In this document: positions 2,320 to 20,178 of the stretch, piece after piece
How the letters are laid out: each line of letters opens with the position of its first letter
How positions within the stretch are numbered: position 1 is the stretch's first letter
From: a virus
DNA: 64,000 nt
Reading direction: 5' to 3' (one strand)
IMG/VR virus record: IMGVR_UViG_3300027887_000007
Coordinates: 32,001-96,000 of that record
The notes under the pieces: model-generated
What the model was told of the DNA's origin: nothing
What the model saw: the letters and a program-made list of their open reading frames with translations, nothing else
Databases searched by the model: none
Translations under genes and position numbers: made by a program

Positions 2320-5300
2320 CTACATTGGAGGGGGAGAAGGCAGTGCGTTCTCTTGGCTGGCCGGGACAGCTTCATCTTCCGGCCATTTCAGGGAAGGCGC
2401 AAGCCTGAGTTCTTCCTCTTTCAGCTTTTCGAGTTCATGTCCTATCTGATCCTGCGTGAGCCCCTTGGCGCGGCCCGCCTTTATGGCGTCTGCTGCCTTC
2501 AAGGCCGATCGGGCCATGGCCAGCATGGACAGATAATAGGCGTCGATGTCCTTCCGCTTCCGCTCGGGCGTAGCCTCCGGCCTCCTAGAGTTGATAACCA
2601 TCCTCACTTGGCCATGGTACAGGCGGATGATTTCTCCTGCCGCTTTCAGGGTAGCGTACTCTGCCCACTCGTCGTCAGTAAGTTGTGGAGCGGACACGCT
2701 GCCGGGATTCTTTATGCCCTCACGGAAGCTCTGGTACCTCATCTCGAGGCGCTGTAACCGCTTCTGTAGCTTCTGTAGACTGACCAGTCCCCCGCTGGGG
2801 TACCTTACTCCAAAAGTGCGGGCAAGGCTAACGTCTACCATCTTGGGCGTGGGATCGGTTGGCCCTGAGTCGGGAATGAGGCGGTCGACCACCTCTCGCG
2901 TCACGATGCGGCCGGCCCCCGCCGTGTAACCGAACATGAGGTTTTCCAGCTTCACCGGACTGACCCGGAAGTCGAAGATATCCTCACCGAAGACCTTCGT
3001 CATCTCATGGTATATCTTGGCGATCGCTTTCGACGTCGTGACGGCAGCCTTCGACGTGTACCATTCAGCGCGATCCTCCGGCTCAAGGAGCTGCATGTGC
3101 GGAGTTTCAATCATCCGACCGGTAAAGAAGCTGTGGTTGAAGTAGTTCTCGAGTAGCGGCATGATGCCCGTCGCCTGGGCGAACGGGACGGCCGGTAGGA
3201 CCTGAGTAAATGTATTAGTGAGGAACTCGTCAATCGCGCTTTTGTCCCGACGGTGGATCCACTCGCACATGCGCTCTGCGGTGTTGCAGAAGACATAGCC
3301 CCATAGGAACGGCTTTGGAATCGGAACGTACGGCGTTACTTTGTACAGGCTCGTTCCCTTGGTGGGAAAGAGCCAGCACGAATCCTTCAGCCACCACGGC
3401 AGCTCTTGGTACTTTTCGTCGTCCTTATTTACCGACCATAACAGGACTGAGATAAGGGCCAGCGCAGAGCCTTTGATGGCAGACTCATATGGCCGCTCCT
3501 TGATGGTTCGTCCGAACTTGTCAATGTCCTGTACCGCGGCATTCCAGAACGCATGGGTCATGGAAATCGAGAGCATCTTAGCTCCCATGCGACTGTAGTC
3601 TAAGGTCGCCTCGCGTGACTCAAGGGCGGCTTCCCTTATTGGCATACCCTTGTCCCTAGCCAGCTTGTACACCGCGACTCTGGTCATTTCCTCAGAAAGC
3701 TCGGAGAGAACCCGTAAGGAATCAATCCACTTTCTCGGCTTTATCGCCGTAAGGATGGGGTGGGTCACTAGGTCGGTCAACTGCTGCCTGATGTGATCCC
3801 TGTCTAGAGAAATCATGGCGGCGTGAGCCCCACCGCCACGGATCCATTCATGATACAGATCATCACGCTTGAAGACGTGCCACAGCCCCATCAGGGAGTG
3901 CCATCCCGGGACAAATCCAAGGGGATGCTTTTTGGAGTAAAGACTGGTCTGCATGAATGCAGTCGCGGCGTCCCGAAGTATGTTCTTCGGCGTGAACTCC
4001 GGGTTGATTCCGGTCGCTCCCAGTCGAAGGATCTTCGCCGGAACAGCGAGGACCCTCATAAGGACGTTCACCTCTTCAACGTCTAGACCTTGCACAGCGT
4101 TGTACAGCTCCGGGTTAAGCTGAAGCAACTTAACCTTTCCTCGTACGTGGACCGTTATGATGTTCTCTTTTGGAGAGGGCGCCTTGATCGGCCTGAAGAC
4201 GGTCGCAATCGCATCGAGGTCAATGTCCGGATCGGACAGGTTAAACCCAGCCGCCTCGAGGGCGCCGCGTATCTCCGAGAGCGTGAACGAGGTTGGGCGC
4301 ATGTCAGGCGGAACCGGCTCCGCAACCCAGCCGGCACCATCCAGTTGAGACAGACTGTAGAGTGCTTGGGCTACTCTGTTCCGGTCTGCGAGGTTGATCA
4401 TCGTGTACGTGTTCTTGATGATCGTCTCAAGCGGATCGAGAATTGGAAGCCAAGATCCAGTAAACTTTTTCAAGCTTCCCGGTTGCCACAAGTTCCCGAC
4501 CCCTTCTCCGGCCATCCCCTTTGAGCCACCGGATTTTTCCCCGATGCCGGCCTCGTAGAGCCGATGGAACGGAACGTAGAACTTGTTCATCTTCTTGATC
4601 TTCTCGTACGGACCGGGATGATTCGGGTCATAGCTTCTCTCAAGCATCCCGCTATCTGCGTAGTACCTGAGCAGGCGATCCTGATAGTCGTACATCCCTT
4701 GGAGGGCGTTCCATATCATCGCCGCCTCAGGAGTAATCGGCTGTAGCGTTCTGGGATCAAAGCCCTGAAGCTGAAGACTAGACCTAGCTTCATCCAGCGT
4801 GATGCCGACTTCTCTCCCTTGCAGTCCCTTTTTCTCTAACGTGCGAAGGGCGATGGCACAAATGCGAAGGTCGTCCAGCCTGTCTCGGACAGGCTCCAGA
4901 ATAGCCCGGAATCCGTCGCCGGTAGGTGATAGGTTTATGGGATCAAATGTGTCTACGTTGAGGAACTGGTCGGCTTTTGCTACCCAGCCAGCCCGCAGCC
5001 TAGCCAGAAGGTGGGGATCCTCTACCTTTAGGTCTGCCAGTTTTTTACCGGCCTCCTTCTCGATTCTCTTAACTACCTTGTTTAGCGGATTGAGATGATT
5101 GATAACCTTCGTGTACAGTCCGCTCCACCAGTTGGTCTCGTAGATAGGGGCATCGAAAGAGATGTGGGCGAGGATTTTAGCCGACGCCGGCTGCGCTGCC
5201 CAGCGAATGAAATCGTCTCGCGCCGTGGTAAGAGCCTTCTTTACATCTGGATTTAGGTCGAGCGTCCGCTCAAAGAACTGAGTGAAGGATGGCGCCGAGG

Positions 5301-8300
5301 CCCTCGCCACTGGATTCTGTGTCACCCACAGCCTAACGTACTCGGCAAACCCTTCGGGAATCTTGGATCCGCCGGCGCGTGGCTTGGTCGCCAGCGGCTC
5401 CAGCTCGGTTGCGAAGGGTGCGAGCGCGGAGTAGTTCAAGTCCCCCTTGGAGAGACCCCACAATAGCTTGTTGATGTGATGCCCGGCCTCATGGAAGGCG
5501 ACGTTCAGGGGTCCGAGGTCTCCCGGCTTTTCACCGACGCCGCCAAGTTTCTTCCGCAGGCGTATGACCTCGGCGCGTGGCTTGTAGATCCCCAGCGCCT
5601 TCATCCTGAATCGGCCGAACCTCATTGGTACGTTCAGTGCCTTAGTCAGGTCCTTGAGGATCTTGTGCTTCGTCACAAGGTCCTTGCGGCTTAGCTTCTG
5701 CGGGTTGGGACCCGGCTGGAAGGCAGTCGAGCCAGCGACGGGCGGCAGGACCGGTGGAGTCGACGCCATCGCCGAGGGCGGCGGCAGTAGTGGGACGGTC
5801 GTCGCCCCGCTCACGGGACCTTCCTCGAGCGAGAGCGTCGGGCCGTTCGGGTCGCTGATTCCCTCTTTGCCCGTGATCTGGTCAAGCTCCTGCTGCATCC
5901 TTAATAGATGCGGCATGTATGCGTTCGCTTCGATCTTGGCCTGCACCTCGTCGTACTTCCGGCTCTCAAGGATGTGGTTCTTTACCTCTGTGGTCACATC
6001 CAGAACCGTGTTTCCCTCTAGGAGCCACTGGTCGAGATCGTTGGTCTGGATCCAGTTGAGTAGGCGTTGGGCCATGATCGGCGCCTTGTGAACCATGCGC
6101 TGATCTGACACGTCTCCTATTCCGTCGATGATCCGCTTCGCCGACTCCATGGCCTGCTCGACCCAGAACTGGGCGCCCTTGGCAGCCTGGAAGTTATCCG
6201 TCGGCGGCTCCATTTCAAGGCCGAGGTCGATGCTCTTCTTGCCGTCTCCTTGGTCGTACGGCATCAGTGGGGACGGACCGCTACCGCCCCCAGCTGATCC
6301 CGGCGGGGTCGTGGGATCGGCCGTACCAGTCGAGATGACCCTGTCCGCTGGGTACTTCTCGATGATCTTGTCCAAGAGCTTCGGGCCGTCGTTCTCGTCG
6401 AGTGGGATGAAAGCCCGGGGCCGCATAGATCCTCCGGGGGTCTTGATAACCTCGACGATGGCGCCCCACTCGCGCAGCTGCGCCACCAGAGATTCCTTGT
6501 AGGCGCGGCTCATGTTGATCTCCATCCGTCGTTCGCCGTGGATGGGATCACACATGTAAATCTGCCAGTTATTCGTGAGCTGGACGTTCGCGCCGGAGCG
6601 GATCATGTGGAAGAGAGAAGTGCCGGTCTCGGCCTTCAGCTCTGTCCCAAGGCCTAGCCTCTGCTTGAGAGCGGTGATCTCGTTGGCCTGTACTTGGAAC
6701 CCGATTATTCCACTACCGTCCTTCAGGATCGCCCGAACAACCCGCACATGACGGAGTCCGTTATCTCCCATGATCTTGTCATAGACCGGGAAGATGGCGC
6801 CTGTGACCATGTAGATAGGCGCCCGGAACGTCTTAGGGATTGAGGCGAGCTCCATGTTCCAAAGTGTCCGCGCCCGCTCGATGCCCCACAGTGGGACCGT
6901 GATCCTGCCAAGCAACGGCGGCGCCTCGCCCTCCATCCTCTCCACCGCTTCTCGCTCTTCAAGCGAACGAGGGGGTTTGGGCAAGCCCTGAGCGGCCCGC
7001 TTCTCTTCGTGTTCGATGATCTCGTAATACCGAGTTTCATCCTTGGGATTAGACCAACGGATCGGTGCTTTCTGGTTGGGCGCATTCGGATCCTGCGCCA
7101 CTCTCAATGCGCCCGGCGCCGGCTCGATGTCCTCCTTGGCATAGTTCTTTTGGAACTCTTCCAGCGGGACCCGTTCCCTGCGGAACTTCACGCTACGAAG
7201 ATCGACATAGCGAGACCCGTCCTGAGGATCAATCCAAGTGTAGGCTGCGTAAATCATGCCGCTGCGCTTGTTGGTGTAGAACCCCAACATGCCAGCTGAC
7301 CGCGGGAGATCCTCGAACTGCTGTCTGGGCGACTCGAAACTTCCCTCCATTTCGACGAGCTGAGTCTCCGCTCCGGAGCGAGGGTCGGTGTAAAGATGCT
7401 CTGCCCCTTTAATGTCGATCTCGGTGGCGCGGATCTTGGATACGCCCTCGTCGAACCGTCCAGCTTCCTTTGCTGCCTGCACTAGGCGGGTGTAGGTGGC
7501 GTAGAAGTAATCGAACACCGCGTTTTGGACGGTGACCGGAAGGACCATGATCCGGTTAAGGAAGTTCTCCGGGTTTCTCCCGGCGGTCGGACGAAGGTGA
7601 AGTTTGCCCTGCTTGTCCTTTCGGACATAACCCAGCTTCGTCAGAATCTCCTGACCGCTCATGTCGGGATGGTAGAAATTCCCCGCCATGAGGTCGGCTA
7701 CCGTGTGCATACAGGCAGCCTTGCCGTAAGCATCCGTGAAATCTTCGATGTTGAAGAGTGACCCGGCCAAAGCCTCGCGGTGTCCTTGGGTGAAGGCGCC
7801 GAGGCTCGCCAGCCTTCTTGATACGGCATTGATCAGCCGCTCTTGCCCGCGAACATTCGTCCGCACAAGATAGATCATCGGTGCAGACGCTTGGTTGGAT
7901 CGGTGGGCGCGGCCGAAGAACTGCATCTGTTGATCGGCGGACCACGACAGTTGGGCGCAGAACATGACGCGGCGTTTCTTGTTCACTGCCGCCCTTGATG
8001 CGTGAGCGCTGATCCCTGCGTTCCCAGCCGCAGTGATGACCAGTACGTCTGTCTCGCCCTTCTGGAAGCGGCGCAGCTCCCAGTTGTTCTTCGTGTCGCC
8101 CTTCGTCAGCTTCAGTCCGTCCGGTTTGACCGATACGTGCTGCCCGTTCTCAAGCCTATGTTCTCTCCCCGAGATTTCCGAGATGCGCGACCATCCGCCG
8201 AAGTGCTGGCCGATCAGGTCGATTGGATTGTCGGGGAGAACGAGGCTATCGCAGAGAGCGAGAAGCTCTTGCTGCTTTTCCACGTTAGCCTGGTTCTGCT

Positions 8301-11300
8301 CGCCGGTCGGGATGTGTTCGAGTTTACCGGTCATCGGATCCCGCGAGACGTCGAACTCCTCCGTCGGGAAGTACTCCTCGATGAAACGCCTGACCATCTG
8401 CCGCGGGCCAAGGTCGATGTCGTCTAGGCTCTTTCCCGCAGCCTTTCTCTCAGTAACGATTTCCTCCATGAGTGTTTCGTTGGTGCTGAGGATGTTGATG
8501 ATCGGAGCCATCCCCTGTGCGAGACACTCATCTACCTTCTCGAACATGGATCCGATCTGGTAGGTAGTCATCAGCTGGAGGAAAAAGCGCTGCTGCATAC
8601 TGTAGTACACGCTGAAGCGAGTCTGATCGTGCCTTTGGTGGGCATTCTTCTCGGCCCATTCCATTGCCTGAACAAGCTCTGAGAAGAGCGATGCCGCATT
8701 GTTGTACTGCTCTACCTGGAACTCATTCAGCTGGTGATCGACGTAGCCATACTCCACCTTCTCCCAAGGCTCGGCGTCTGGACCTCCGTAGCTTAGGGAC
8801 CGGCTGATGAAGAGACCTACCGCTTTGAGGTCACGCGCAAGCATCTCCATGGACTGGAGACCGCCGGCCCGCATTGCTTCGGTGAAGTCGTCAAAAGTCT
8901 TGAACGGAGATCCCTCGGCTCCCCACAGCATGAGGCGATCCATGTAGCCCATGTTCGACGGCTTTGTCGCACCGGTCGCTGAGACGTAGACGATCCTCGC
9001 CTTGGGGAACACCTTCGATAGTTCCCCGCCCATCTTCCCGGCATTGGTGCCGCCCGTCGACCCGGAGTGGCTTCCATCGTCGGGGATGGCATTCTTCATC
9101 TTGTGGCTTTCGTCAAAGACGATCACGCCGTCGAAGTCTTTGGGGTCTCCCTTTACTTCCACTTCCTTGCCGACCATCGAAGACGGGATCCGCTCGCTCA
9201 GGCCGGTCTCCGGGTTTGTCCAGAAGTCTCCAGCTTCGAGGATCTTCTTTGTCCTCGGCGTGAGGAAGTCGACTATCTGCCGGAATCTCTTTGGATCCGA
9301 ACCCCACCCGATCGAGGCGGTACTGTACTGCGTGAACAGGATCCCGTCGTCTGTGACCGGAGCCTCATCGGCATAACGCGGATCGTTGAGGTGGATCGTC
9401 TTCATCGGCACCATGACTCTGTTGATGTCGCGTTGGGCCGATTCGAGGAGCTGAGATGTTGCGGTTAGCCAGAGGGCCCGCTTGTTTCCCGTCTCCCGCA
9501 GGTAGTGATAAATGATGCCGGCGATCTCGCGCCCCTTGCCGACACCGGTCCCGTCACCAATCCAGAACCCATAATGCCGACCATCCTTGGTCAGATCGTT
9601 CAGGGCTTGGACTGCAAACGTGACGCACTCGAGCTGGGCATCACTAAGGCCGAGCGGCTCTTCTCCCTCGGGAACCGGGGGCGGATGGAAGACATCCTCG
9701 GGGAGGTTTAGCTTTACCTTAACGTCTGGGAAGTCGACCGACGCTTGCGGTCCGCTCTCAATCAGCGGCGCCGGATGGGGGGTTACCCCCTCGTACAGTG
9801 CCTTCCGAACTTGGTAACGGACGTAGACGGCCGATTCCTCCTCGCCCATCTTCCTGTCCGTCGTGACTATCTTTATGTCGGCGGGAGGAGGTTGAGGTTC
9901 GACAGGAGGTTCGTTGCCACCTCGAGGCCCCACACCTTCAGTGTCCTCGGGTCCGGGTTCACCGGGACCGGGAGGTCTGGGAGGAGCCGGAGGATTTCCC
10001 TCTCCACGAGTTCCGGGCGCGTGAACGCCACCTCCCCCACCGCCTGAAGCCCCTCCTCGCCCCCCAGGTCGTCCGCCTCGAGAAGTACCTCCTCGCCCTC
10101 CTCCACCTCCAGAGCCGCCACCAGTGCCTTCACCAGTGGGTGGTTCCCCGGGGGGAGTTGGAGGTGTTGGAGGAGGAGGGAGGCTTGGCGGTTGGCTTCG
10201 CTCAGTTGTACGGCCATAGATGTCATCCTCGGCTATCTTCGCCAGAAGGACAGCCGCCTCTGACGGAGAACATTCCTCTCCTGTTACGATCTCGGCGCCC
10301 TTGGGTAGCGGACCGATCTTGTCGATTACGAGAAGCCTCTGCGGGAAGGAGGTCCCCATCTTCTGGTAGAACTTCCCCGCGAGTCCAATATCTGCACGGA
10401 CGGTGTACTTCTGGTCGACCTCGCCCCACCATCCGACAAACTTGTCTTTCCCCCGGGCCATCCCCTCGCCGATGATCGCCACGAGGCGACCGCCGGGGGA
10501 TAGCTTCTGGAGGGCCTGCATGATGTGGCGGGCCCCGTGAGCAGTATTCTTACCGGTCGGACCGGCAGAGAACGGGGGGTTCATCAGGACGAGGTTCGGC
10601 CGGAGATCAGATACAGCCGTTCCCGTAGTGTTGATGTGCAGGGCATCGACGTCCGTGGTCGTGAAGCCACGGATCTGTAGCATCTGCAGCCGGCGCTCGT
10701 CGATCTCGTTGGCCGTTACCTGAGCCCCGCGGATCCGGAGCATGGTCGCAAGCATCCCCGTCCCGGCGCTCGGCTCCAAGGCGCTCATCGGACCTGACGC
10801 TATTCCTAGGGCGTAGGCAGCTACGAAGGCCTGAGCCGGCGGCGTCGAGAACTGCTGGAGGTCGATCTGCTCCATGGTCCGATCGGACTGAACGGCCAGC
10901 CTCGACTGGAGCTCCATGAGCGCCATGAGGGTTTCAATCGGGTTGCCGAAGTCGACGATGTTCGACATCTCGATCGCCGCGGAGACCCCGGCCTCGAAGG
11001 CGTCGTACATGTCGCGGAGCTCGTACTTACCCTCGCCACGCTGCCCGCCGAACACTTCGTTGGCCATCGCCTGAAGCTTGCGGTTGTTGAATGACTCGCC
11101 GGCAAGGATCGCAGCGCGGACCTTGGCTACTAGATTCCTGTACTGCTCCTGCTTGGTCTGGGTCTCGGGCGGCGGCGGGGGCGGCGCCTCAGGTCGACGG
11201 AAACCCATGATCCGGGCGTAGTTCTCGACCATCTGGTAAACCTGATCGAGATACGGCCGTACCCATTCGGCGCTGTTGGCGATCACGGCTTCCGCCCACT

Positions 11301-14300
11301 CTTCCTTGACGGAATGCTCTCTGTAGAAATGGGCTCCAAGCAGAACGAGGTTTTTCCTCGTAGCCGGATCAAGACTGCTTATGTGACCGGGTCGACTTCC
11401 TCCCATGTCGGCAATGGAGGCCAATCCGGATGAGTCTCCTCCCTGTACTCCCGTATCCATTCCCAGTACTGCTTCGGGTCCTCCCCCTGATCTTTCATCC
11501 ATTGCAGAAAGGACTTCAGGTCTGGCATGTACCAGGCGGGGGACCCCGTCAGATGACCCAATCTTGCCAAGCAGATCGCCCGTCGCTCCCCGCGGGGCAG
11601 AGAGGAGATCGAAATATCGTCGAAACGCTGTGGTGGCCGCATATCCGTTAGCCTTGAAGTGTGCGGTTAAGATGCCTCTCCACTTGGTCTCTTCTGGAAC
11701 CAAGGATGTCCGAATGTCCTGCATGAATGCGGCAAAATCCTTTTCGTGATTCCAGTGTACCGTGTGGACAAGCTCATGTTCGATTAAGGTAGAAAGGATC
11801 CTAGTGCAGTGGACGGTGATCGCCTCGTCGCGGGACAGCAGTCCACTCTTTTCAAAATGGGTGCCGGCATGAACTAGGTTGTGCAGGTTAAGCAATATGA
11901 GGTATGGCTTGGACGGATCGTGATCTTCCCCAAAAGCCTTTAGGTCGCCATGGAATATGATCCCGTTGTAACTCGATCCCAGACCGTATCCGTGGAACTT
12001 GGCCTTCATGATCCTGTCGGCATGATCCGGATGCAGGACGGCCGTTCGCTTCTGAAGCTCCTCGAAACAAGCGGCCGTCAACTCGATTGTCTTTTGCACA
12101 ATCGGATCGCTGGATATCGCCTTCACTACATCGGGCGGCAGCTGATCCTCGTTTGAGTCGACTACCTTGAACCGGGTTGACCCGACGTTGTAACCCTTGT
12201 AGACGATGTCGTCAGTCTTTTGCCGTTCCGCTGCGGCGGCTTTGACGATGAGTGTATTTTTTATCCACTCGAAGACCAGAGCATCCGTCGACTTTGAGAA
12301 GTCGTTCCGGTTCATCGCCAGCGGATAGACCAGATCCTTATGGGCCGGATCCGCTTTTGGGTGAATGTCGATGACAAGTTCTGGAGGAAGGTCTAGGTCC
12401 TCGTCAAGGCGGTAAGTTTTCTCGAACGTAGAGAACCCGTTAACCAGAGTATGGACGTTAACGTACCCGACCTTTTTGTGTACGCCGGGTTGGTAGTATA
12501 TGTCTCCAGAAAAGTTGCGGTCCCCGATCTCTGAAAGCTTAGTCCACTCTCCGAATTCCGCAGGGATTACCGGAGACTCGTTGAATAAAAAGTTGATGTC
12601 GAACTCTGGCAGCCGATTTCTGCCAAGCCAGTCTTTACACCATTGCTTCAGCAGGGCCGGGTAGGGAGACGGTTTGTTTAGTGTAATCTCGATCTCTGTC
12701 CCTGCCTTACGCTTGGTTGTGGGGACAACCGAATTCAGAAGGAATCCCTTAGTCTGGAAATCATCCCCTGTTCCCTCGAACCAAGTCTCTTCCCACCGTC
12801 TCGTCTCGGGATTGAAGTTGACGCTTGAAACCCGAATCGTATCTGCGGATCCGTAGATGGCGACTTTGGCAATTCCGAATCCTCCAGAACTATTCTCGAG
12901 GACTTCTCCGTTTTCATCGAACTTCAGGGACGCGAAAGGCTCTACAAAGAACGTACCCATCGTCGCCTTCGACATGCCAATGCCGTTGTCGACTATTTTT
13001 ATCGTTGGTTTCTGTCCTCTTTCGGCTTTGACAGTTACCCCTATCGTTCCCTTTCTTCCATCCCTGATGCCCCTAAGAGCGTCGACGGAGTTCTGGAGCA
13101 TCTCGCGCAACGCGATCTCGGTAAGGTCTGACCCCTCGTAGGTTTTGACTCCTAGGATGTACTGGGCTCTGCCGTCCATCTTCTGGACTGCCCACTCCCG
13201 GCCCTGAGCATCCTTGACGATCTCCATCGTCGCTCTGGGCGGGAGGTAGCCTTGGTCGCGCATCCACTCGAATGCGTCCTTGACAGCCTTGGCGTCTGGT
13301 AGGGCGCCGGGCGGTTTTGTGCCGAATGCCCCTTTCAGTTTGGCGAGGTCGTCGCTTCCGAGCCCGCCAGTGAGTACCTTCTTCAGGTCCTCGCCCTTTA
13401 CCTCCTCGGTCGGAGGAGTGGTAGGCGGCGGCGTAATCTCCGGGCCTTTCTTCTCCTCCGTCGGTGGAGGTGGAGTTATCGTTGTCTTTTTCCGCTTCTT
13501 CAGGATCGGGCCGCGGTTCTTCTTTACGATCTCCGAGTCCTGAAGATTGAAATGGGCGATGTGTTTTTCGATAAGCTCGTCGGCCCCTTGGTGCAGCTTC
13601 CAGTCCTTTTTGTTGTCATACTGCTTGCTTTTGTCGTACAAGGCCTGAAGGAGAATCTCGGCCTCGTGTCCGGACGCGACAAAGTAGTGGCCTTTCTCTA
13701 AGTCCACCTCGAAGGTGTCGAGGAAGGTCGGTCTATCTGGGTCCTCGTTCTCCTCCCGAATGGCCAAGAGGACTTCTTCCTGCTCGGTAGACTCGTACTC
13801 AATTTCCTCTGTCGGGCCCTCGGGGGTGGTCGTTTCCGGCGGCTTCGTCCCGACGCCGGCCTGTCCGAGGATTTCGTTCAGCGTCTCCTGTAGGCTTTCC
13901 CTGACCTCGTCGGCCTCCTTCGGTGTCGAGAATGGTCCCGCGGATTCGACGCCACTGGAATCGTAGACCCTGAAGTTTGCTTCGTTGTCTTCGTGGACCG
14001 TGTACAGCGAGATGTTTCCGATTTCCGTGCTGGGCTGAGCCACAATCTCTCCCGCAGCAAAGTCGTAAGCTTGCTGCGGCGTCATCATGTGGATCTGGGC
14101 TTCCGTGAAACCCAGAACCCTCAGACGGTTCTGGACGGCCCAAGAGTTGTGCAGTTCCTCCGGGGCATCGGGGAGGTCTGGGAGCGGATGGCCCGGCTTT
14201 GGCTTGGTGTTAACAGGGGTGGTCGGGCGCTGCTCACCCTCCGGCTTTGACTCTCGGTAGGCGTCGAGAACCTTCTTCAGTTTTCTCGGAGAGATCCCGT

Positions 14301-17300
14301 ATGAAGAAAACACGTTGCTCAGGAACTCGAATAGGGAACTCCCCGTCGGTTCGTGTCCGTGCCATGGGTTTGCGACGTACTGCTCCCATGCTTCCTGCTG
14401 TGCCTTAGGAAATCGCTTTGCTGCAAATTGAGCCAGCTCCTCGAATCCAAGTGGAAGGTCAAAGCCTAGGAAATTGCCGTCCCTCAGTATCGGGTACTCA
14501 TCTAGCACCTGCTGTGGAACCTCGCGCCCGATGCTGAGAGCCTCTTCCACAGCCTTGAAGTGGTGGTCGTCGTAGAGCTCGTTGTGAAACTGAGCCTCTT
14601 CAACCGCAAGGGCGAAGTTCCTGACGGCCTGATGGGCGACGTCCTTCGTCAGCGCGAGCTCGTCCGGGCTAATGTCACGCTCGTCAATGGCCGGATCGTT
14701 GAAGAGCTGATCGACCTTGTTGTGCCACAGCTCGAACCACTCGGCGAGCTCGATTTCGCTATCAAGCAGGCCTTCTCTTACCCAACCTCCCAGCAGGTGC
14801 ATCTCATCTTCCATGCTGGTGATCGTGTTACGGTACTTGAACGTGTAGAGACCGCGATTCTCCGGCCGCAGGAACTTCGGAGCGACCTGGTGGACTAGCG
14901 TCATGCGAAGATCGTCGAGCCCACGCTCGAGGACAGTGGGATCCTCGTGCTGCGGGTAGTCGCTCGCGTCGTACTGCTCCCTAGTCATCTGGTGAGGCTC
15001 TAGCTTCTGACTGGGCGGGGCGTTCTCGGACTCAGGCGGCGGTCCCGGCAGACCTCCCTGCGCCGCCTCCGAAACCATTGCGGCTATCTCTTCGGCGGTT
15101 CCTACGTGGATCCTGATCGGTGTGAGCGGTTTCCCCTCTTTCGCGTTGAACTCGTTACGGAATGCTTGGACCTGACGCGGGACGTCCCACCTCGGAACGA
15201 CCGCATGGCCGGCTACGGTCATCGTCCCGTCAGGATTGACCGCCCATACGATTACGCCTGCGTCGGCGTCGGCGTCCTTGGGGGCAACGATTCCGAGGAG
15301 CTCATAGAGCTTCCCGGCGTCAAGCATCGAACTAATGTCGTCCTCGCTGTACGAGTCCGATCGGTAGACGAGGAATCCGTCCTCGACTTTCGGATGGTCG
15401 GAGATATCAACCAACCGAAGCGGGGGCATGATGTTCCACAGCTCCAGAGAATCCTTCTCCTCGTCGGTTAGCTTCGCCATCGTGGATGCCGCGATAAACA
15501 CGGCATTGCGGCTGCCGTTGGCAAGGTTAGCCAACTGCAGTTTGATGGTGTCGGGATCCTCGGGCAACGTCGGCTGAGTAGCCGTCGGCGGCGCCTCCGT
15601 CGTTTCGGGCGGCGGCGGCTCCCCAACCGGAGCGCCCTCGATTGGCTTGCGAACTATCTTCGACTTGGCGGCTAGGTACCCAAGGTTGTCGTTCGCCTGG
15701 AATACATACTTCGCCTCTCCGGTTGTTGGGTCGTAGATCAGCTCGCCGTTCTGGTCGTGATCGTATCCATAGATAGCGCCGGCGAAGGCTCCGATCTTTC
15801 CGTTCTCCAGAACGTGATAGAGCGACTGACCGACTCTCTGGTATTTCAGCCCATCTGTTGTAACGAGCTGGTCGCCTTCTTCCATGACCGCAAGGATCGT
15901 ATGACCCTGAGCGACGATCTCTCCCTCTGCCTGCATCCGGGCCGACTCGTCACCGGCTAGTGGCTGGGCTTCCATGATCTCTGTCATGCGACGATCCAGC
16001 CACGCCTGTACTTCCATTTCATCAAGACCGTGAAGCATCCCGACTAGGACAGAATCAGCCGGCGTTGCCGCCTCTCTAGTCTCTGGCGGCTTGGTTAAGC
16101 CGGGTTCCTGCGGAGCAACCGTTTTAGGAAGGAGTCCCCGCTCTAGCCTCTCTACCTCAGAAAGCTCCAGCTGCGAGAATTCCTTGCCGAATAGCCGGCG
16201 CGAGATTCGATCCGGGTCGAGTCCAAGGCGACCCATGATCTCGCTGACTCTGGCTACGGCAGCGGTCATTACCGCATCGCCCGGGTACGGTGTATTCGCC
16301 GAAGTCGGAGGAACGAAGGTTCCGTAGATCGCCCGGTAGGAACGCTCGATAGCCAAGAGAGCGCTCTCCGGCAATGTGCTGGAGTCTATCGAGGCCAGAA
16401 CCTCGGCCGGGATCGGGTTTCCTGTCTCGTCGAGGTGTGTCCCAATCTCCTGCGCGATCGTCAGTCTCAGGTTGGGATCCTTGTTGTCCCACCATTCAGC
16501 CGCAGCCTTGATCTGCTCATCGGAAGGACCACCGACCGGTTCATTCGGCTCGAGCTGCCTGCGGATCCAGTCGGAAGGACCGGCCGCATCCATTAGGTCA
16601 AGGACCTCCTGCGGAACCGGGGAGACAGGATTGTCCCTGTACTGCGACAAGGTGTCGGAGGCTTGGCCAAGCCATTCGATCTGTGATTCGACGCGGCTGC
16701 GCTCCGAGGCTCTGTCAATGTTTAAGATCAGGTCCTCGCGTTCCCGGCCGATGCGAGCCACGGCGAAGTCGATCTGATTCGGCGTTGGAACTGGGGGCGC
16801 CGGCTCAGGCGGAACACCCTCTACTGGGGGGACGCCGCCTTCTACTGGGGGGACGCCGCCTTCTACTGGAGGGACGCCGCCTTCTACTGGAGGAACACCG
16901 CCTTCTACTGGAGGAACACCGCCTTCTACTGGAGGAACACCGCCTTCAGGCGCAGCCGGAGGGGGAGTTTCGGCGGGAGGTGTCGGAGCCGGTACAGTAG
17001 GGAGAACTCCCTTGTGCTTGTCGAGTACCCCGACCAGCACTTGCCGCAGCTCGAGGATGTTCCACTGCGCGATCTCTTCATCCTTGAAGCCGGAGTACCG
17101 GAGGACCCGCATCACCTCGTCCGTCACTCCATGAGGGTTGCCAGTCTCCGCTTTGGCCGGGGCCCGGCGCATCCCACGTTCGAGTGCGTATATGGCGCCC
17201 TTTACCGCAGTCGGAACCGAGAACGCCGCGATCTCCTGTCCGAACTGATACAGGAAGTCGTCGATCGCTTCTGCTTTGGCAGACATGGGATCCGTGAAGA

Positions 17301-20178
17301 TCCGGATCATGGGAGGAGCCTTGTCCCCCTCGCGCAGCTGCCCAATGAGTGGGAGGTTGATCTCCCGCAGGACATCCCCCATCCGCTCTTCAAACCACTC
17401 ACCGATCAGCCCGTGCCAAGCCATCTTCTGCTTGAACTTGTTGAAGAAATCGTCGAGCGTCCTAGTGGGGTCGCGTTTGAGCCAGTCGTAGACGATGGCT
17501 GACTTCAACGCGCCAAGCTTGTTGATCAGGGGCAGCTTGGCGAACTGCTTTACCCAAGGCTCGATGGCTTCTTTGAGTGCCTTCTGAGCGTATTCACCGG
17601 GAAGGCCCATGCGCTCAGTCCAGTTCTCAATGACTTGCTGAGGTAGAGCCTTTACGAGGGCCGGCATGAAGTCGTCGTCCCATCGCTCCAACTGGTCGCG
17701 CAATCTCTGAAGGTTGCTGGGGTCGCCTATTTGGGTGGGCAGTTGGTTCTCAAGAGTCTGCTGGAGTAGCCTCTGCGGCATGACAAGCGTATGCACGGTA
17801 GCCGCCGCAGCGGAAGTAACGGCGGTTCTCGCGGCCTTCATCGCCGCTTTCCCTGTGACCTTCTCGCCGAGTATCGTTGCTTCCTTCTTGGCTAGATTCT
17901 CAACCGCTCTCCCGGCTACCTTCTTGGCAACCCTCTCCATGGCCTGGTCGAGCAGAAGCTTCGTCCCCGTGTACGCCCCCCCGGTAGTAGCGAACTCCAG
18001 CGCGTAAGCAGGCATGTTGGCCGCAATCTCAGCGGCGCCATAGAGGAAGGTCGTGTCTCTTCGGCCCTCCTCCTGTTCCTGTAGAAATCCTTCTATGACT
18101 TGAATGTCATGCGGGGTCTCCCGGTTGTCTCTGATCGCACGGGCGGCCTCGAGGATTTCCAGAGAGTGTGCGGCATCGAAGAGGGGTCCGACAAACGGGG
18201 TCAGCGTCAATGCCTTGCGGGACGGCTCGAACCTGCTCAGGTTCTCGTTGTACTCGAACATCTCCGCTGCGAATGTCTTCAGATCCTTCGGCCCGGTCCC
18301 CTTAGCTTCAGCGTGAGCCCTTTTAATCGCAGCGTCGATACGGCTCTGCCTTCTAGCTTCCGACTCGAACTGCTTTGGATCCATGTCCCCCAGAAGGTTC
18401 TCGATCTGGACGCGATCCCGATTGGCAGTCAACACCGCATCTTCGGGTTTCTGCGTCAGGTCCATCTGTACCGTCTTACCCGGCACAACCCGCTGCGGGG
18501 CTTTCATGGCTTCGGCTAGGATGTCCCTGACGTTCCCCTGCTGAGCCCGCATCATAATTGGGATCATGCGGGGATCCGTAGAAGAAGCCAGCTGTATCCC
18601 TTGCGTGGCGCCGAATGCCTGTAGGTCGTCGATCTCCTTCTTCTTCTGCCGAGCCCGATCCGACACTTCTTTGAGGTCCGCCACGAGGGCGCTGTACCTC
18701 TTCATTTCAGAATCGTTGGTCTGATCCGGACCGTCTGGAAACTCCTTGGCGAGCTGTTCGTCTGACAGCTTCATCTCGTCGACTATTGCCGTGAGCTCCT
18801 GATAGGTGGAAATCAGCTGGCCTGCCAGATCGGTCTCAAGCGTCGGCGGTCCAAGAATGGACTTCCCGGTAAGAATCTCTGCCGGTTTCGAGATGTCGAT
18901 CTTCCCGCCCTCGAACCACGGCTCCCCGGGCTTTACCGGGGCGACGGGAGCCCTGCCCGGAGGTGCCATGTCAGAGGCAAGGGGGGGCTGCTGCGTCATG
19001 TCTACGGCCGGTGGTTGGACCTCCGGCGCGGTCTGTGGGGCCGGCGGCGCTGCTGGAGGAGTACCCGCGGCGACTTGCGGTGGCGCGAAAGGAGTCGGGG
19101 GCTGCGCCAGTCCGGGCTGCGGGACTGGAGGAGGCTCTGTCTTTGCGAGAGACCCGCCCTCAGCTGCCGTTCCGGGGCCAGCGATGCTGTACTCCGGAAG
19201 CTTTCCGCCCTTCATGACGTAGTTCCAGGCGTTCGTGTACGCCCTGCCGCCCTCCACGGGGTCGTGGACCTGTCCCTTGCGCCCGATGTACAGCAAAAGC
19301 TCTAGGCCCTCGAGGCCGAGCTTCTTCCCCTTTTCGTACCAAGGCTTCAGATACTTCAGTGACTTCGGGATGACGTAGTCAGGATCGAACTGCAGGTCGA
19401 TGGGCTCGCCCGTCCCCATGCCACCCGGTTCGTTCCACTGGAAAAGACCGCGGCTAGTTCGACCTTTCCCGCCGTCGTTCTGTCTGACCGCTTTCGGGTT
19501 TCCACCAGACTCGCCCATGATGATTGCTCTGGTGATCTCCCTCGGGATTCCGTACTGATCCGAGTATCGGTCGGCCTTTTCCCAGACCGTCTCTTCCTTG
19601 GGCTGCGTTACTGCGCCGGGGATCTTCTGCCTCTGAACCGACGGTACGAACGGTACCGGCGCCCCGAGCTGAGGCGGCGGCGTAAGGGAAGGCTCTTCCT
19701 GCGGTTTAGCGGCAGGAGCCGGCTTTGGAAGAGCTTCCTTGGGTGTCTCTGTGGTTGGGGATCCCAGCGGCCCTGTGACGTCTGGCAACTTGGATTCGAT
19801 CCACTGCCCCCACCCCTTGATCCGCTCGCCAAGGCTCTTTTCGGGCGGTGCCTTTGGCTTGTGTTCCTCGTCCCACTTGGCGTAATACTCTTTCCACGAG
19901 TTGTAGTCTCTGCCAAGTACGTCGTCCTGCACGTCCTTGGGAGCCTTGGCGAACCGCTCAGGTTCGATGATATTTAGCAGGTGCCGCCTAGCCCCCGGCG
20001 TCAACCGATGGAACTCCTCGTTCAGCAGGAGATCCCTTCCCCGCTTGTACTTCTCACGGAAAAGCCTGTTAGCCTCCTCTCGAGATTCCTGTGGCTTTAC
20101 CGACTGGACGCCGCTGGAGAACGTACTGTCTTCCTGCGAGGGATCTAGCTCCTGCGGGTCAACCGGCTGCGTAGCCAT
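2320..20178 (-). CDS. Giant (5952 aa) polyvalent ejected/internal virion protein, DarB-like: SLT transglycosylase, GHKL ATPase, zincin, N6-adenine DNA methyltransferase, strawberry-notch SF2 helicase, second zincin, LPD38-like C-terminus
   Basis: IMGESGGNP..SRGLFQ (~19500); REMLQNSVDA/DNGIGM/GGFGIAK (~13100-12870); HELVH (~11770); QQFSTPP/LEPSAGTG/NPPF (~10850-10570); GDGTGVGKGR/DESH/SATG/QFFGRAHRSNQ (~9550-7890); HEAGH..EGFAEY (~5490-5345); C-terminal YQELPWWLKD..PIPKPF..LLENYFNHSFFTGR. Follows the ejection-protein genes. Confidence 0.88.
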   Translation of the reverse strand: MATQPVDPQELDPSQEDSTFSSGVQSVKPQESREEANRLFREKYKRGRDLLLNEEFHRLTPGARRHLLNIIEPERFAKAPKDVQDDVLGRDYNSWKEYYAKWDEEHKPKAPPEKSLGERIKGWGQWIESKLPDVTGPLGSPTTETPKEALPKPAPAAKPQEEPSLTPPPQLGAPVPFVPSVQRQKIPGAVTQPKEETVWEKADRYSDQYGIPREITRAIIMGESGGNPKAVRQNDGGKGRTSRGLFQWNEPGGMGTGEPIDLQFDPDYVIPKSLKYLKPWYEKGKKLGLEGLELLLYIGRKGQVHDPVEGGRAYTNAWNYVMKGGKLPEYSIAGPGTAAEGGSLAKTEPPPVPQPGLAQPPTPFAPPQVAAGTPPAAPPAPQTAPEVQPPAVDMTQQPPLASDMAPPGRAPVAPVKPGEPWFEGGKIDISKPAEILTGKSILGPPTLETDLAGQLISTYQELTAIVDEMKLSDEQLAKEFPDGPDQTNDSEMKRYSALVADLKEVSDRARQKKKEIDDLQAFGATQGIQLASSTDPRMIPIMMRAQQGNVRDILAEAMKAPQRVVPGKTVQMDLTQKPEDAVLTANRDRVQIENLLGDMDPKQFESEARRQSRIDAAIKRAHAEAKGTGPKDLKTFAAEMFEYNENLSRFEPSRKALTLTPFVGPLFDAAHSLEILEAARAIRDNRETPHDIQVIEGFLQEQEEGRRDTTFLYGAAEIAANMPAYALEFATTGGAYTGTKLLLDQAMERVAKKVAGRAVENLAKKEATILGEKVTGKAAMKAARTAVTSAAAATVHTLVMPQRLLQQTLENQLPTQIGDPSNLQRLRDQLERWDDDFMPALVKALPQQVIENWTERMGLPGEYAQKALKEAIEPWVKQFAKLPLINKLGALKSAIVYDWLKRDPTRTLDDFFNKFKQKMAWHGLIGEWFEERMGDVLREINLPLIGQLREGDKAPPMIRIFTDPMSAKAEAIDDFLYQFGQEIAAFSVPTAVKGAIYALERGMRRAPAKAETGNPHGVTDEVMRVLRYSGFKDEEIAQWNILELRQVLVGVLDKHKGVLPTVPAPTPPAETPPPAAPEGGVPPVEGGVPPVEGGVPPVEGGVPPVEGGVPPVEGGVPPVEGVPPEPAPPVPTPNQIDFAVARIGREREDLILNIDRASERSRVESQIEWLGQASDTLSQYRDNPVSPVPQEVLDLMDAAGPSDWIRRQLEPNEPVGGPSDEQIKAAAEWWDNKDPNLRLTIAQEIGTHLDETGNPIPAEVLASIDSSTLPESALLAIERSYRAIYGTFVPPTSANTPYPGDAVMTAAVARVSEIMGRLGLDPDRISRRLFGKEFSQLELSEVERLERGLLPKTVAPQEPGLTKPPETREAATPADSVLVGMLHGLDEMEVQAWLDRRMTEIMEAQPLAGDESARMQAEGEIVAQGHTILAVMEEGDQLVTTDGLKYQRVGQSLYHVLENGKIGAFAGAIYGYDHDQNGELIYDPTTGEAKYVFQANDNLGYLAAKSKIVRKPIEGAPVGEPPPPETTEAPPTATQPTLPEDPDTIKLQLANLANGSRNAVFIAASTMAKLTDEEKDSLELWNIMPPLRLVDISDHPKVEDGFLVYRSDSYSEDDISSMLDAGKLYELLGIVAPKDADADAGVIVWAVNPDGTMTVAGHAVVPRWDVPRQVQAFRNEFNAKEGKPLTPIRIHVGTAEEIAAMVSEAAQGGLPGPPPESENAPPSQKLEPHQMTREQYDASDYPQHEDPTVLERGLDDLRMTLVHQVAPKFLRPENRGLYTFKYRNTITSMEDEMHLLGGWVREGLLDSEIELAEWFELWHNKVDQLFNDPAIDERDISPDELALTKDVAHQAVRNFALAVEEAQFHNELYDDHHFKAVEEALSIGREVPQQVLDEYPILRDGNFLGFDLPLGFEELAQFAAKRFPKAQQEAWEQYVANPWHGHEPTGSSLFEFLSNVFSSYGISPRKLKKVLDAYRESKPEGEQRPTTPVNTKPKPGHPLPDLPDAPEELHNSWAVQNRLRVLGFTEAQIHMMTPQQAYDFAAGEIVAQPSTEIGNISLYTVHEDNEANFRVYDSSGVESAGPFSTPKEADEVRESLQETLNEILGQAGVGTKPPETTTPEGPTEEIEYESTEQEEVLLAIREENEDPDRPTFLDTFEVDLEKGHYFVASGHEAEILLQALYDKSKQYDNKKDWKLHQGADELIEKHIAHFNLQDSEIVKKNRGPILKKRKKTTITPPPPTEEKKGPEITPPPTTPPTEEVKGEDLKKVLTGGLGSDDLAKLKGAFGTKPPGALPDAKAVKDAFEWMRDQGYLPPRATMEIVKDAQGREWAVQKMDGRAQYILGVKTYEGSDLTEIALREMLQNSVDALRGIRDGRKGTIGVTVKAERGQKPTIKIVDNGIGMSKATMGTFFVEPFASLKFDENGEVLENSSGGFGIAKVAIYGSADTIRVSSVNFNPETRRWEETWFEGTGDDFQTKGFLLNSVVPTTKRKAGTEIEITLNKPSPYPALLKQWCKDWLGRNRLPEFDINFLFNESPVIPAEFGEWTKLSEIGDRNFSGDIYYQPGVHKKVGYVNVHTLVNGFSTFEKTYRLDEDLDLPPELVIDIHPKADPAHKDLVYPLAMNRNDFSKSTDALVFEWIKNTLIVKAAAAERQKTDDIVYKGYNVGSTRFKVVDSNEDQLPPDVVKAISSDPIVQKTIELTAACFEELQKRTAVLHPDHADRIMKAKFHGYGLGSSYNGIIFHGDLKAFGEDHDPSKPYLILLNLHNLVHAGTHFEKSGLLSRDEAITVHCTRILSTLIEHELVHTVHWNHEKDFAAFMQDIRTSLVPEETKWRGILTAHFKANGYAATTAFRRYFDLLSAPRGATGDLLGKIGSSDGVPRLVHARPEVLSAMDERSGGGPEAVLGMDTGVQGGDSSGLASIADMGGSRPGHISSLDPATRKNLVLLGAHFYREHSVKEEWAEAVIANSAEWVRPYLDQVYQMVENYARIMGFRRPEAPPPPPPETQTKQEQYRNLVAKVRAAILAGESFNNRKLQAMANEVFGGQRGEGKYELRDMYDAFEAGVSAAIEMSNIVDFGNPIETLMALMELQSRLAVQSDRTMEQIDLQQFSTPPAQAFVAAYALGIASGPMSALEPSAGTGMLATMLRIRGAQVTANEIDERRLQMLQIRGFTTTDVDALHINTTGTAVSDLRPNLVLMNPPFSAGPTGKNTAHGARHIMQALQKLSPGGRLVAIIGEGMARGKDKFVGWWGEVDQKYTVRADIGLAGKFYQKMGTSFPQRLLVIDKIGPLPKGAEIVTGEECSPSEAAVLLAKIAEDDIYGRTTERSQPPSLPPPPTPPTPPGEPPTGEGTGGGSGGGGGRGGTSRGGRPGGRGGASGGGGGGVHAPGTRGEGNPPAPPRPPGPGEPGPEDTEGVGPRGGNEPPVEPQPPPADIKIVTTDRKMGEEESAVYVRYQVRKALYEGVTPHPAPLIESGPQASVDFPDVKVKLNLPEDVFHPPPVPEGEEPLGLSDAQLECVTFAVQALNDLTKDGRHYGFWIGDGTGVGKGREIAGIIYHYLRETGNKRALWLTATSQLLESAQRDINRVMVPMKTIHLNDPRYADEAPVTDDGILFTQYSTASIGWGSDPKRFRQIVDFLTPRTKKILEAGDFWTNPETGLSERIPSSMVGKEVEVKGDPKDFDGVIVFDESHKMKNAIPDDGSHSGSTGGTNAGKMGGELSKVFPKARIVYVSATGATKPSNMGYMDRLMLWGAEGSPFKTFDDFTEAMRAGGLQSMEMLARDLKAVGLFISRSLSYGGPDAEPWEKVEYGYVDHQLNEFQVEQYNNAASLFSELVQAMEWAEKNAHQRHDQTRFSVYYSMQQRFFLQLMTTYQIGSMFEKVDECLAQGMAPIINILSTNETLMEEIVTERKAAGKSLDDIDLGPRQMVRRFIEEYFPTEEFDVSRDPMTGKLEHIPTGEQNQANVEKQQELLALCDSLVLPDNPIDLIGQHFGGWSRISEISGREHRLENGQHVSVKPDGLKLTKGDTKNNWELRRFQKGETDVLVITAAGNAGISAHASRAAVNKKRRVMFCAQLSWSADQQMQFFGRAHRSNQASAPMIYLVRTNVRGQERLINAVSRRLASLGAFTQGHREALAGSLFNIEDFTDAYGKAACMHTVADLMAGNFYHPDMSGQEILTKLGYVRKDKQGKLHLRPTAGRNPENFLNRIMVLPVTVQNAVFDYFYATYTRLVQAAKEAGRFDEGVSKIRATEIDIKGAEHLYTDPRSGAETQLVEMEGSFESPRQQFEDLPRSAGMLGFYTNKRSGMIYAAYTWIDPQDGSRYVDLRSVKFRRERVPLEEFQKNYAKEDIEPAPGALRVAQDPNAPNQKAPIRWSNPKDETRYYEIIEHEEKRAAQGLPKPPRSLEEREAVERMEGEAPPLLGRITVPLWGIERARTLWNMELASIPKTFRAPIYMVTGAIFPVYDKIMGDNGLRHVRVVRAILKDGSGIIGFQVQANEITALKQRLGLGTELKAETGTSLFHMIRSGANVQLTNNWQIYMCDPIHGERRMEINMSRAYKESLVAQLREWGAIVEVIKTPGGSMRPRAFIPLDENDGPKLLDKIIEKYPADRVISTGTADPTTPPGSAGGGSGPSPLMPYDQGDGKKSIDLGLEMEPPTDNFQAAKGAQFWVEQAMESAKRIIDGIGDVSDQRMVHKAPIMAQRLLNWIQTNDLDQWLLEGNTVLDVTTEVKNHILESRKYDEVQAKIEANAYMPHLLRMQQELDQITGKEGISDPNGPTLSLEEGPVSGATTVPLLPPPSAMASTPPVLPPVAGSTAFQPGPNPQKLSRKDLVTKHKILKDLTKALNVPMRFGRFRMKALGIYKPRAEVIRLRKKLGGVGEKPGDLGPLNVAFHEAGHHINKLLWGLSKGDLNYSALAPFATELEPLATKPRAGGSKIPEGFAEYVRLWVTQNPVARASAPSFTQFFERTLDLNPDVKKALTTARDDFIRWAAQPASAKILAHISFDAPIYETNWWSGLYTKVINHLNPLNKVVKRIEKEAGKKLADLKVEDPHLLARLRAGWVAKADQFLNVDTFDPINLSPTGDGFRAILEPVRDRLDDLRICAIALRTLEKKGLQGREVGITLDEARSSLQLQGFDPRTLQPITPEAAMIWNALQGMYDYQDRLLRYYADSGMLERSYDPNHPGPYEKIKKMNKFYVPFHRLYEAGIGEKSGGSKGMAGEGVGNLWQPGSLKKFTGSWLPILDPLETIIKNTYTMINLADRNRVAQALYSLSQLDGAGWVAEPVPPDMRPTSFTLSEIRGALEAAGFNLSDPDIDLDAIATVFRPIKAPSPKENIITVHVRGKVKLLQLNPELYNAVQGLDVEEVNVLMRVLAVPAKILRLGATGINPEFTPKNILRDAATAFMQTSLYSKKHPLGFVPGWHSLMGLWHVFKRDDLYHEWIRGGGAHAAMISLDRDHIRQQLTDLVTHPILTAIKPRKWIDSLRVLSELSEEMTRVAVYKLARDKGMPIREAALESREATLDYSRMGAKMLSISMTHAFWNAAVQDIDKFGRTIKERPYESAIKGSALALISVLLWSVNKDDEKYQELPWWLKDSCWLFPTKGTSLYKVTPYVPIPKPFLWGYVFCNTAERMCEWIHRRDKSAIDEFLTNTFTQVLPAVPFAQATGIMPLLENYFNHSFFTGRMIETPHMQLLEPEDRAEWYTSKAAVTTSKAIAKIYHEMTKVFGEDIFDFRVSPVKLENLMFGYTAGAGRIVTREVVDRLIPDSGPTDPTPKMVDVSLARTFGVRYPSGGLVSLQKLQKRLQRLEMRYQSFREGIKNPGSVSAPQLTDDEWAEYATLKAAGEIIRLYHGQVRMVINSRRPEATPERKRKDIDAYYLSMLAMARSALKAADAIKAGRAKGLTQDQIGHELEKLKEEELRLAPSLKWPEDEAVPASQENALPSPPPM
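9873..10217 (-). CDS. Candidate nested gene (114 aa, +1 frame) inside the methyltransferase-helicase linker of the giant protein
   Basis: GAGGA RBS then ATG GCC GTA CAA CTG. Globular-looking Leu/Glu-rich sequence with genome-like codons (CTC/CTG/GAG/GTG), while the main frame is low-complexity Pro/Gly with A/T-ending codons. Confidence 0.65.
   Translation of the reverse strand: MAVQLSEANRQASLLLQHLQLPPGNHPLVKALVAALEVEEGEEVLLEADDLGGEEGLQAVGEVAFTRPELVEREILRLLPDLPVPVNPDPRTLKVWGLEVATNLLSNLNLLPPT
11379..11528 (-). CDS. Candidate nested gene (49 aa, +1 frame) inside the zincin-methyltransferase linker of the giant protein
   Basis: MPDLKSFLQWMKDQGEDPKQYWEWIREYREETHPDWPPLPTWEEVDPVT. Hand count: G/C third positions about 34/49 in this frame versus about 19/49 in the main frame. 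Weak RBS. Confidence 0.5.
   Translation of the reverse strand: MPDLKSFLQWMKDQGEDPKQYWEWIREYREETHPDWPPLPTWEEVDPVT
16811..16947 (-). repeat. 21-nt coding tandem repeat encoding (GGVPPVE)x6
   Basis: Repeated ccttctactggaggaacaccg / ccttctactggggggacgccg units on the + strand, with no spacers. Confidence 0.9.

Follow-up and report, generated by a model that had tools for sequence, protein, structure and literature searches.

Does a linker in a giant phage gene also encode a second protein in another reading frame? The question is raised by IMG/VR virus record IMGVR_UViG_3300027887_000007, a phage record of 110,207 bp that CheckV rates as complete, of which we analysed bases 32001-96000 (the window, 64,000 nucleotides; coordinates below are window positions unless stated otherwise). 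A single open reading frame (ORF) of 5952 codons (17.9 kb) occupies 2320..20178 on the minus strand of the window and, judged from the ORF list, its translation and its Pfam domains, encodes a polyvalent protein. We refer to this ORF as the host gene and to its frame as the main frame. The host gene contains a Gly/Asp/Ser-rich linker (residues ~2878-2933, 11379..11545), bordered on one side by a zincin module and on the other by the helical domain that precedes a methyltransferase. A preliminary description of the DNA had proposed that the +1 frame of this linker is a nested mini-gene for a Trp-rich peptide of 49 residues, or alternatively that it is reached by a +1 frameshift. From the analyses below, we lean toward the view that the linker is functionally dual-coding and that the +1 peptide is made by one of these two routes, without holding that view strongly. 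The main frame would then specify a disordered Gly/Asp/Ser spacer, and the same ~155 bases in the +1 frame would specify a Trp-rich helical-hairpin domain of about 50 residues.

The +1 ORF is present as proposed. In the ORF list it extends from its first ATG to a TAA stop (11379..11642, minus strand; the 87-residue product is called P0002 here) and lies wholly inside the host gene. The frame is open from 11642, an internal ATG at 11526..11528 is the candidate start of the 49-residue peptide (the 49-mer), and the stop is at 11379..11381. The 49-mer is indeed rich in Trp (5 of 49 residues, vs 1.5% in the giant protein). The properties expected of coding sequence are confined to a core of 52 codons (11382..11537), the last 49 of which are the 49-mer. 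This core was delimited by G+C content at each codon position, codon usage, a bias among Gly codons, a match to another protein and predicted structure; the first 38 codons of the ORF do not look coding in the +1 frame.

We compared the two frames by composition and by codon usage. Over the 49 codons, G+C contents at the first, second and third codon positions were 0.58/0.39/0.69 in the +1 frame and 0.69/0.60/0.40 in the main frame, and the values for the host gene as a whole were 0.63/0.43/0.70. A count of G or C at third positions made by hand for the preliminary description (34 of 49 in the +1 frame vs 19 of 49 in the main frame) agrees with the computed values. A codon-usage log-likelihood ratio (LLR), trained on the rest of the host gene, was +10.5 for the +1 frame and -3.6 for the main frame. 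Reference windows of 49 codons from the same gene scored 10.2 ± 5.3 in the true main frame and -21.1 ± 8.7 in the +1 frame. The +1 reading of the linker thus scored at about the mean of true coding windows, 3.6 standard deviations above the +1 null, and the main frame scored 2.6 standard deviations below its own mean. The signal was limited to the last ~52 codons of the ORF: the LLR in the +1 frame was -4.6 for the first 38 codons of the 87 and -6.3 for the twelve codons immediately upstream of the core. This upstream part of the +1 ORF overlaps a main-frame motif that is conserved in P0004, a homologue of the giant protein described below. In a sliding scan of all 5952 codons, the +1 frame outscored the main frame at this stretch and at 9873-10233 only, and a codon model trained on the genome gave the same picture. 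A crude longest-ORF scan of the genome also listed two other stretches, 70494-70763 (minus strand) and 37704-37943 (plus strand), where an alternative frame was somewhat ahead (about 4-8 vs 0-4); these signals may be gene-calling artefacts.

GGA accounted for 9 of the 12 main-frame Gly codons in this stretch of the linker, compared to 27% of those in the whole gene (p = 7e-4), and GGA followed by G, A, C or U creates a Glu or Asp codon in the +1 frame. The low G+C content at third codon positions (GC3, 0.40-0.43 over the linker) could in principle have reflected the local composition of linkers, a possibility that had been named in advance as one that would undo the proposal. Ten other low-complexity (Pro/Gly/Ser-rich) linkers of the host protein had GC3 values of 0.66-0.81, and linker composition was therefore ruled out as the cause of the shift. 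The only other low-GC3 stretches in the host gene were the 9873 region and one tandem repeat. The repeat, at 16768-17031 (minus strand), consists of about seven copies of the seven-residue unit Glu-Gly-Gly-Val-Pro-Pro-Val, with a GC3 of 0.44 and six stops in the +1 frame. The observation that other linkers are interrupted in the +1 frame held up as well, with three stops near ~13400 and six near ~16850. The codon pattern suggests that the +1 reading has shaped the codons here and that it is under selection at the protein level now, or was very recently.

A search for relatives of the +1 peptide pointed to the same codons. A phmmer search of P0002 against 1.84 billion cluster representatives gave one match (E = 7.8e-4 over the whole library), P0011, a predicted protein of 95 residues encoded on a 1881-bp metagenome contig from ENA. 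The match was restricted to the 49-mer (residues 41-85 of P0002). The pairwise alignment was ungapped over 45 residues (38% identical, 71% similar; 46 bits in BLASTP). The two proteins have in common the helix-turn-helix part and a C-terminal end, PDWPPxPxxxEVDP, and P0011 has 35 additional N-terminal and 15 additional C-terminal residues relative to the match. In a tblastn search with P0011 of the whole phage genome in six frames, this spot was the only one found (E = 9e-10). Further searching did not enlarge the family: a profile search among proteins of 47-167 residues returned P0011 only, searches with shorter fragments of the giant protein found no additional members, and a protein atlas search, including a feature search, gave no usable match for the +1 peptide. 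Neither the +1 peptide nor P0011 has a Pfam or PHROGs family. When P0011 was decoded in the best case for a main frame of a giant gene in which it might itself be nested, the result was not significant overall (fraction 0.17-0.32), although the upstream anchor motif was matched at 7 of 9 positions. On this borderline evidence, the 49-mer appears to belong to an extremely rare but real-looking family of small P0011-like proteins.

Structure prediction separated the two frames in the same place. We ran AlphaFold2 on the +1 product with a two-sequence alignment, and on the main frame at the same depth in a context of 541 residues. Residues 41-87 of the +1 product had predicted local distance difference test (pLDDT) scores of 81-84, with helices at 42-51, 56-70 and 80-83, and the N-terminal 40 residues had scores of 46-66. 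The main frame of the same DNA was mostly coil (pLDDT 22-26), between flanking helices at 55-80. The model confidently predicts that the +1 core is a helical hairpin (helix-turn-helix) followed by a Pro/Trp-rich loop and a short helix. A fold search of the Protein Data Bank with the +1 model returned no match at E ≤ 0.001.

If the +1 peptide is functional, it might be recognizable at the corresponding place in relatives of the host gene. A search with the region found one full-length homologue cluster, P0004 (5366 residues), which is 33-36% identical here. Its domains follow one another in the same order, and its linker is about as long, the two linkers having weak main-frame similarity. Other members of the cluster are nearly identical to P0004, and no substitution pattern was obtained from them. 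A tblastn search of phages and plasmids found no homologous DNA for this linker, and among viral, metagenome and genome contigs the alignment scans turned up a single partial locus (L002), which is unrelated. Two further relatives, P0005 and P0006 (4191 and 4231 residues, on JGI contigs of 109,212 and 109,283 bp, close to the length of this phage), lack the linker. They have the methylase-helicase-LPD38 half in common with the host protein (~65% identity), and GGDEF replaces the GHKL-zincin front half, which points to module swapping within one phage group.

We used the P0004 protein itself. Of the three bases in a +1 codon, two are determined by the main-frame protein sequence, and the +1 residues allowed by the P0004 linker were scored in the best case. 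At offset 2399, the register set by the upstream anchor motif, the score against P0011 was 111 (z = 3.9), a value matched by 0.08% of 5300 offsets. The same register scored 104 against the 49-mer (0.11% of offsets) and was matched by 0.04% of offsets against a two-query profile. Shuffles of the 50 linker residues of P0004 gave a p of 2e-4 for P0011 and of 5.5e-4 for the 49-mer. Within a central nonamer of P0011, 7 of 9 residues are encodable by P0004 and the other two are conservative. Gapped decoding gave z of ~3, and decoding in the +2 frame gave no signal. These results suggest, at the strength of a best-case decoding of a protein and not of its DNA, that the P0004 linker could encode the same +1 peptide in the corresponding register; the weak main-frame homology of the two linkers could contribute to them.

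How might the peptide be made? Two routes would be consistent with the sequence. In the first, peptidyl-tRNA-Pro would slip +1 at GUC_CCC_C (CCC_C at 11541-11538) and translation would terminate 52 codons later. The product would contain 2880 main-frame residues and 52 residues from the +1 frame, an isoform of ~2932 residues comprising the SLT, GHKL and zincin domains with a C-terminal cap from the +1 frame, and it would be without the methylase-helicase half. In the second, weak internal initiation at AUG 11528 would release the free 49-mer. We consider the two routes about equally likely and lean slightly to frameshifting, because the slip site marks the beginning of the +1 signal and of the homology, and internal initiation would have no ribosome-binding site.

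The candidate slip site (11538..11547, minus strand) consists of GGGG (11547-11544), UC, an in-frame CCC (11541-11539) and a C (11538). Peptidyl-tRNA at the P-site CCC could re-pair in the +1 frame, the GGGG two nucleotides upstream of CCC is a weak partner for the anti-Shine-Dalgarno sequence, and the coding signal of the +1 frame and the similarity to P0011 both begin within one to three codons of the site. There was no Rfam match at the slip site. A phage-encoded frameshift-suppressor tRNA was also considered as a candidate and was rejected, as a tRNA-Met gene is the only tRNA gene of the phage. That gene (anticodon CAT) was the single hit of the tRNA scan and lies outside the window, at 13121-13195 of genome sequence C1. 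Of the two routes named in the preliminary description, frameshifting is at least as plausible as a mini-gene: the slippery sequence stands where the signal starts, but strong stimulators are missing. For the mini-gene, the coding signature, the protein relative and the fold in silico all stood, and independent translation was poorly supported. The genuine genes of this phage use AGGAG-type sites, and neither nested ATG does. Three strong Shine-Dalgarno-like GGAGGA runs do occur at 11400-11490 (minus strand), but no frame has a start codon 5-10 nucleotides downstream of any of them, and the Glu and Asp codons of the +1 frame may be enough to explain them.

Several observations weigh against a functional +1 peptide, in addition to the limits of the decoding test given above. 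There is no Shine-Dalgarno sequence at usable spacing for ATG 11528 (the sole G-run is 15 nucleotides upstream) or for ATG 11642, and no promoter-like site was found for the +1 ORF. The slip motif is not unique in its gene, which has 23 in-frame CCC_C sites, 4 of them, this one included, with a Shine-Dalgarno-like run upstream. The codon after it, CGC, is common (24% of Arg codons) and would not be expected to be slow in the A site, and no significant RNA structure was found 3' of the site (z = 0.24). The E-value of P0011 is borderline, and P0011 is the sole relative found. A DNA pattern derived from the motif had no match in the viral, metagenome and genome collections, and an alignment scan of viral contigs for the +1 family had none either. 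The C-terminal D-W of the common motif is encodable in P0004 only with a gap of one residue. Finally, the length of the +1 ORF is ordinary: its stop-to-stop span is 95 codons, in a gene whose +1 frame has open stretches of up to 126 codons. We nevertheless infer, from the sequence evidence as a whole, that the +1 peptide is probably produced.

The main rival explanation is that the +1 signal is a non-functional relic. The 3' half of a gene like that for P0011 would have been built into the linker fairly recently in this lineage, by fusion or illegitimate recombination, and would be read out of frame as a disordered spacer that does no harm; the codon signature, the homology and the fold would then be leftovers, and no +1 product would be made. 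A relic would explain the lack of a start signal and promoter as well as the composition, homologue and fold. It also fits the extent of the match. What is present of the P0011 family is limited to its C-terminal ~45 residues, the N-terminal 35 residues of P0011 have no counterpart, and the +1 stop falls where the conserved part of the family ends, as would be expected for the captured end of a gene. Acidic helical proteins read in the -1 frame give Gly/Arg/Ser/Pro-rich, linker-like sequence, and PMC8788219 documents out-of-frame gene remodelling in bacterial pangenomes. The relic does not account for three other results. First, P0004 is compatible with the same +1 peptide in the same register (p of ~2e-4 to 5e-4), and a neutral relic should not outlast divergence to 33% identity; the linker is of the same length in P0004, so there is no obvious insertion. 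Second, all 52 codons of the core remain open in the +1 frame, in which the mean stop-to-stop distance along the gene is 24 codons. Third, the GC3 of the main frame has not drifted back toward 0.70. We regard a relic as unlikely, though it deserves to be taken seriously.

It is also conceivable that an unconstrained Gly/Asp-rich linker is open and coding-like in the +1 frame by luck of composition, and that P0011 is a false positive. Elsewhere in the host gene the +1 frame is open for runs of 92-126 codons, the crude genome-wide scan found a few other internal stretches in which an alternative frame was somewhat ahead, and the P0011 match is marginal at E = 7.8e-4, with no match in the feature search of the protein atlas. 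Chance would need to produce the codon score (3.6 standard deviations), the GGA bias, an ungapped match of 45 residues and a confident fold on the same 50 codons, in a gene whose other linkers behave normally. Because four independent lines, namely composition, homologue, fold and P0004 compatibility, agree on the same ~50 codons and their boundaries, we put pure chance low and consider this explanation improbable. Least probable is an assembly artefact or compensated double frameshift, in which the true protein runs through the +1 frame and is hidden by two indels, real or from sequencing errors: the coding signal does change frame for ~52 codons and then change back, but the +1 frame ends in TAA, just before which the second shift would need to fall, and we rejected this explanation because the P0004 main frame is continuous through a linker of similar length with no in-frame counterpart of the +1 peptide or of P0011, and the main frame is open in both phages.

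Is the arrangement repeated elsewhere in the host gene? The preliminary description had proposed a recurrent architecture in which a domain is accompanied by a nested partner, a claim that rests on a second +1 ORF at 9873-10226 (minus strand; 117 residues, P0003), in the Pro/Gly linker after the methyltransferase. Its +1 offset is the same as that of the 11379 ORF, as had been noted, and its codon score is the strongest of any alternative frame in the host gene, above that of the 11379 ORF. P0003 had no Pfam match and a non-significant PHROG match (E = 0.28). Its best-case decoding signal in P0004 had a z of 3.55, and the shuffle control is unsafe for blocky low-complexity sequence such as this linker. 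There is in addition a non-coding rival explanation for the A/T-ending codons of the 9873 linker. The main frame there contains a Pro run and then a Gly run, and the CCU and GGA codons pair as a long CCUCC/GGAGG hairpin. The hairpin (10089-10190) is imperfect, with a z of -2.3 for minimum free energy and weak Rfam matches, resembling microRNA precursors, on both strands. With this rival and the unsafe control, a recurrent nested architecture is no more than a possibility. A broader reading would be that disordered linkers of giant, ejected polyvalent proteins hide second conserved frames, that the +1 helical domain has been kept in two lineages that are 33% identical, and that the next linker (9873-10226) may hold a second hidden frame. 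The domain would be read either through a +1 slip with few stimulators, which would split the multi-enzyme to give a front half with a cap, or as a free peptide, and phages would thereby have a new means of setting the stoichiometry of the modules in a polyvalent protein or of supplying them with a cofactor. We advance this only tentatively and think it somewhat doubtful.

The domains of the host protein place these linkers in context. Pfam matches (PF01464, PF02518, PF08325, PF05175, PF13872, PF13871 and PF18857) identify SLT, a GHKL ATPase (HATPase_c), a WLM-like zincin, an N6-methyltransferase (MTS), a helicase of the strawberry-notch (Sno/SNF2) type (AAA_34, ResIII and Helicase_C_4) and LPD38, which is phage-specific (PMC5512222). 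The zincin segment, with its HExxH motif, immediately precedes the linker in the main frame (11638..11811, minus strand). It matches PF08325 at protein residues 2790-2847 (790-847 of the middle third) with E = 5e-4, which is under the Pfam cut-off, and the HExxH is unchanged in the alignment with P0004. By its Pfam domains and its phage record, the host gene encodes a phage-type polyvalent protein as defined by Iyer et al. 2017 (PMC5512222).

Polyvalent proteins are believed to accompany the phage DNA on delivery and to be cleaved into working units by their own peptidases. If the linker is dual-coding, its second frame would be a translational route to a half-length isoform or to a small accessory peptide. 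It would also mean that genes never called by annotation pipelines can lie hidden in the junk-like linkers of giant phage genes. The locus is a clean test case for the detection of overlapping genes from composition only. The frame with the older-looking signature is the nested one and not the annotated one; in classical overprinting it is the other way round.

Phages are known to have both nested +1 genes and +1 frameshifts, and the locus can be compared with an example of each. Rz1 of phage lambda is a short gene that lies entirely within Rz, a longer gene of the same strand, and is read in the +1 frame of Rz. It is equipped with a ribosome-binding site of its own and encodes a lipoprotein signal, and the products of the two genes form one complex. 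The ORF described here is similarly a small +1 ORF on the same strand, wholly inside a longer phage gene. It differs from Rz1 in that start codons are present with no ribosome-binding site to serve them, and in that the host frame is a disordered linker of a multi-enzyme protein of 5952 residues.

Programmed +1 frameshifting at CCC occurs in the cps (capsid) and tsh (tail) genes of Listeria phage PSA (Atkins et al. 2016, PMC5009743). As in PSA, a P-site Pro codon CCC that can re-pair one base downstream would give a second product with a new C-terminal region. In PSA, a stop codon or a 3' pseudoknot promotes the shift, which lengthens a structural protein (PMC5009743), whereas no stop, rare codon or structure follows the putative site here, and the shift would halve the protein.

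With its SLT, zincin, methyltransferase and helicase, and LPD38 domains, the host gene is of the textbook phage type of polyvalent protein. The embedded metallopeptidase of such proteins has been proposed to cut the chain into units (Iyer et al. 2017, PMC5512222). The text of that paper does not contain the words 'frameshift', 'overlapping' or 'linker', and a second frame in a linker is outside the picture it describes. What would be new here, relative to that description, is a second frame in the disordered linker of a polyvalent protein that has the older-looking coding signature of the two and has possibly been kept across distant relatives.

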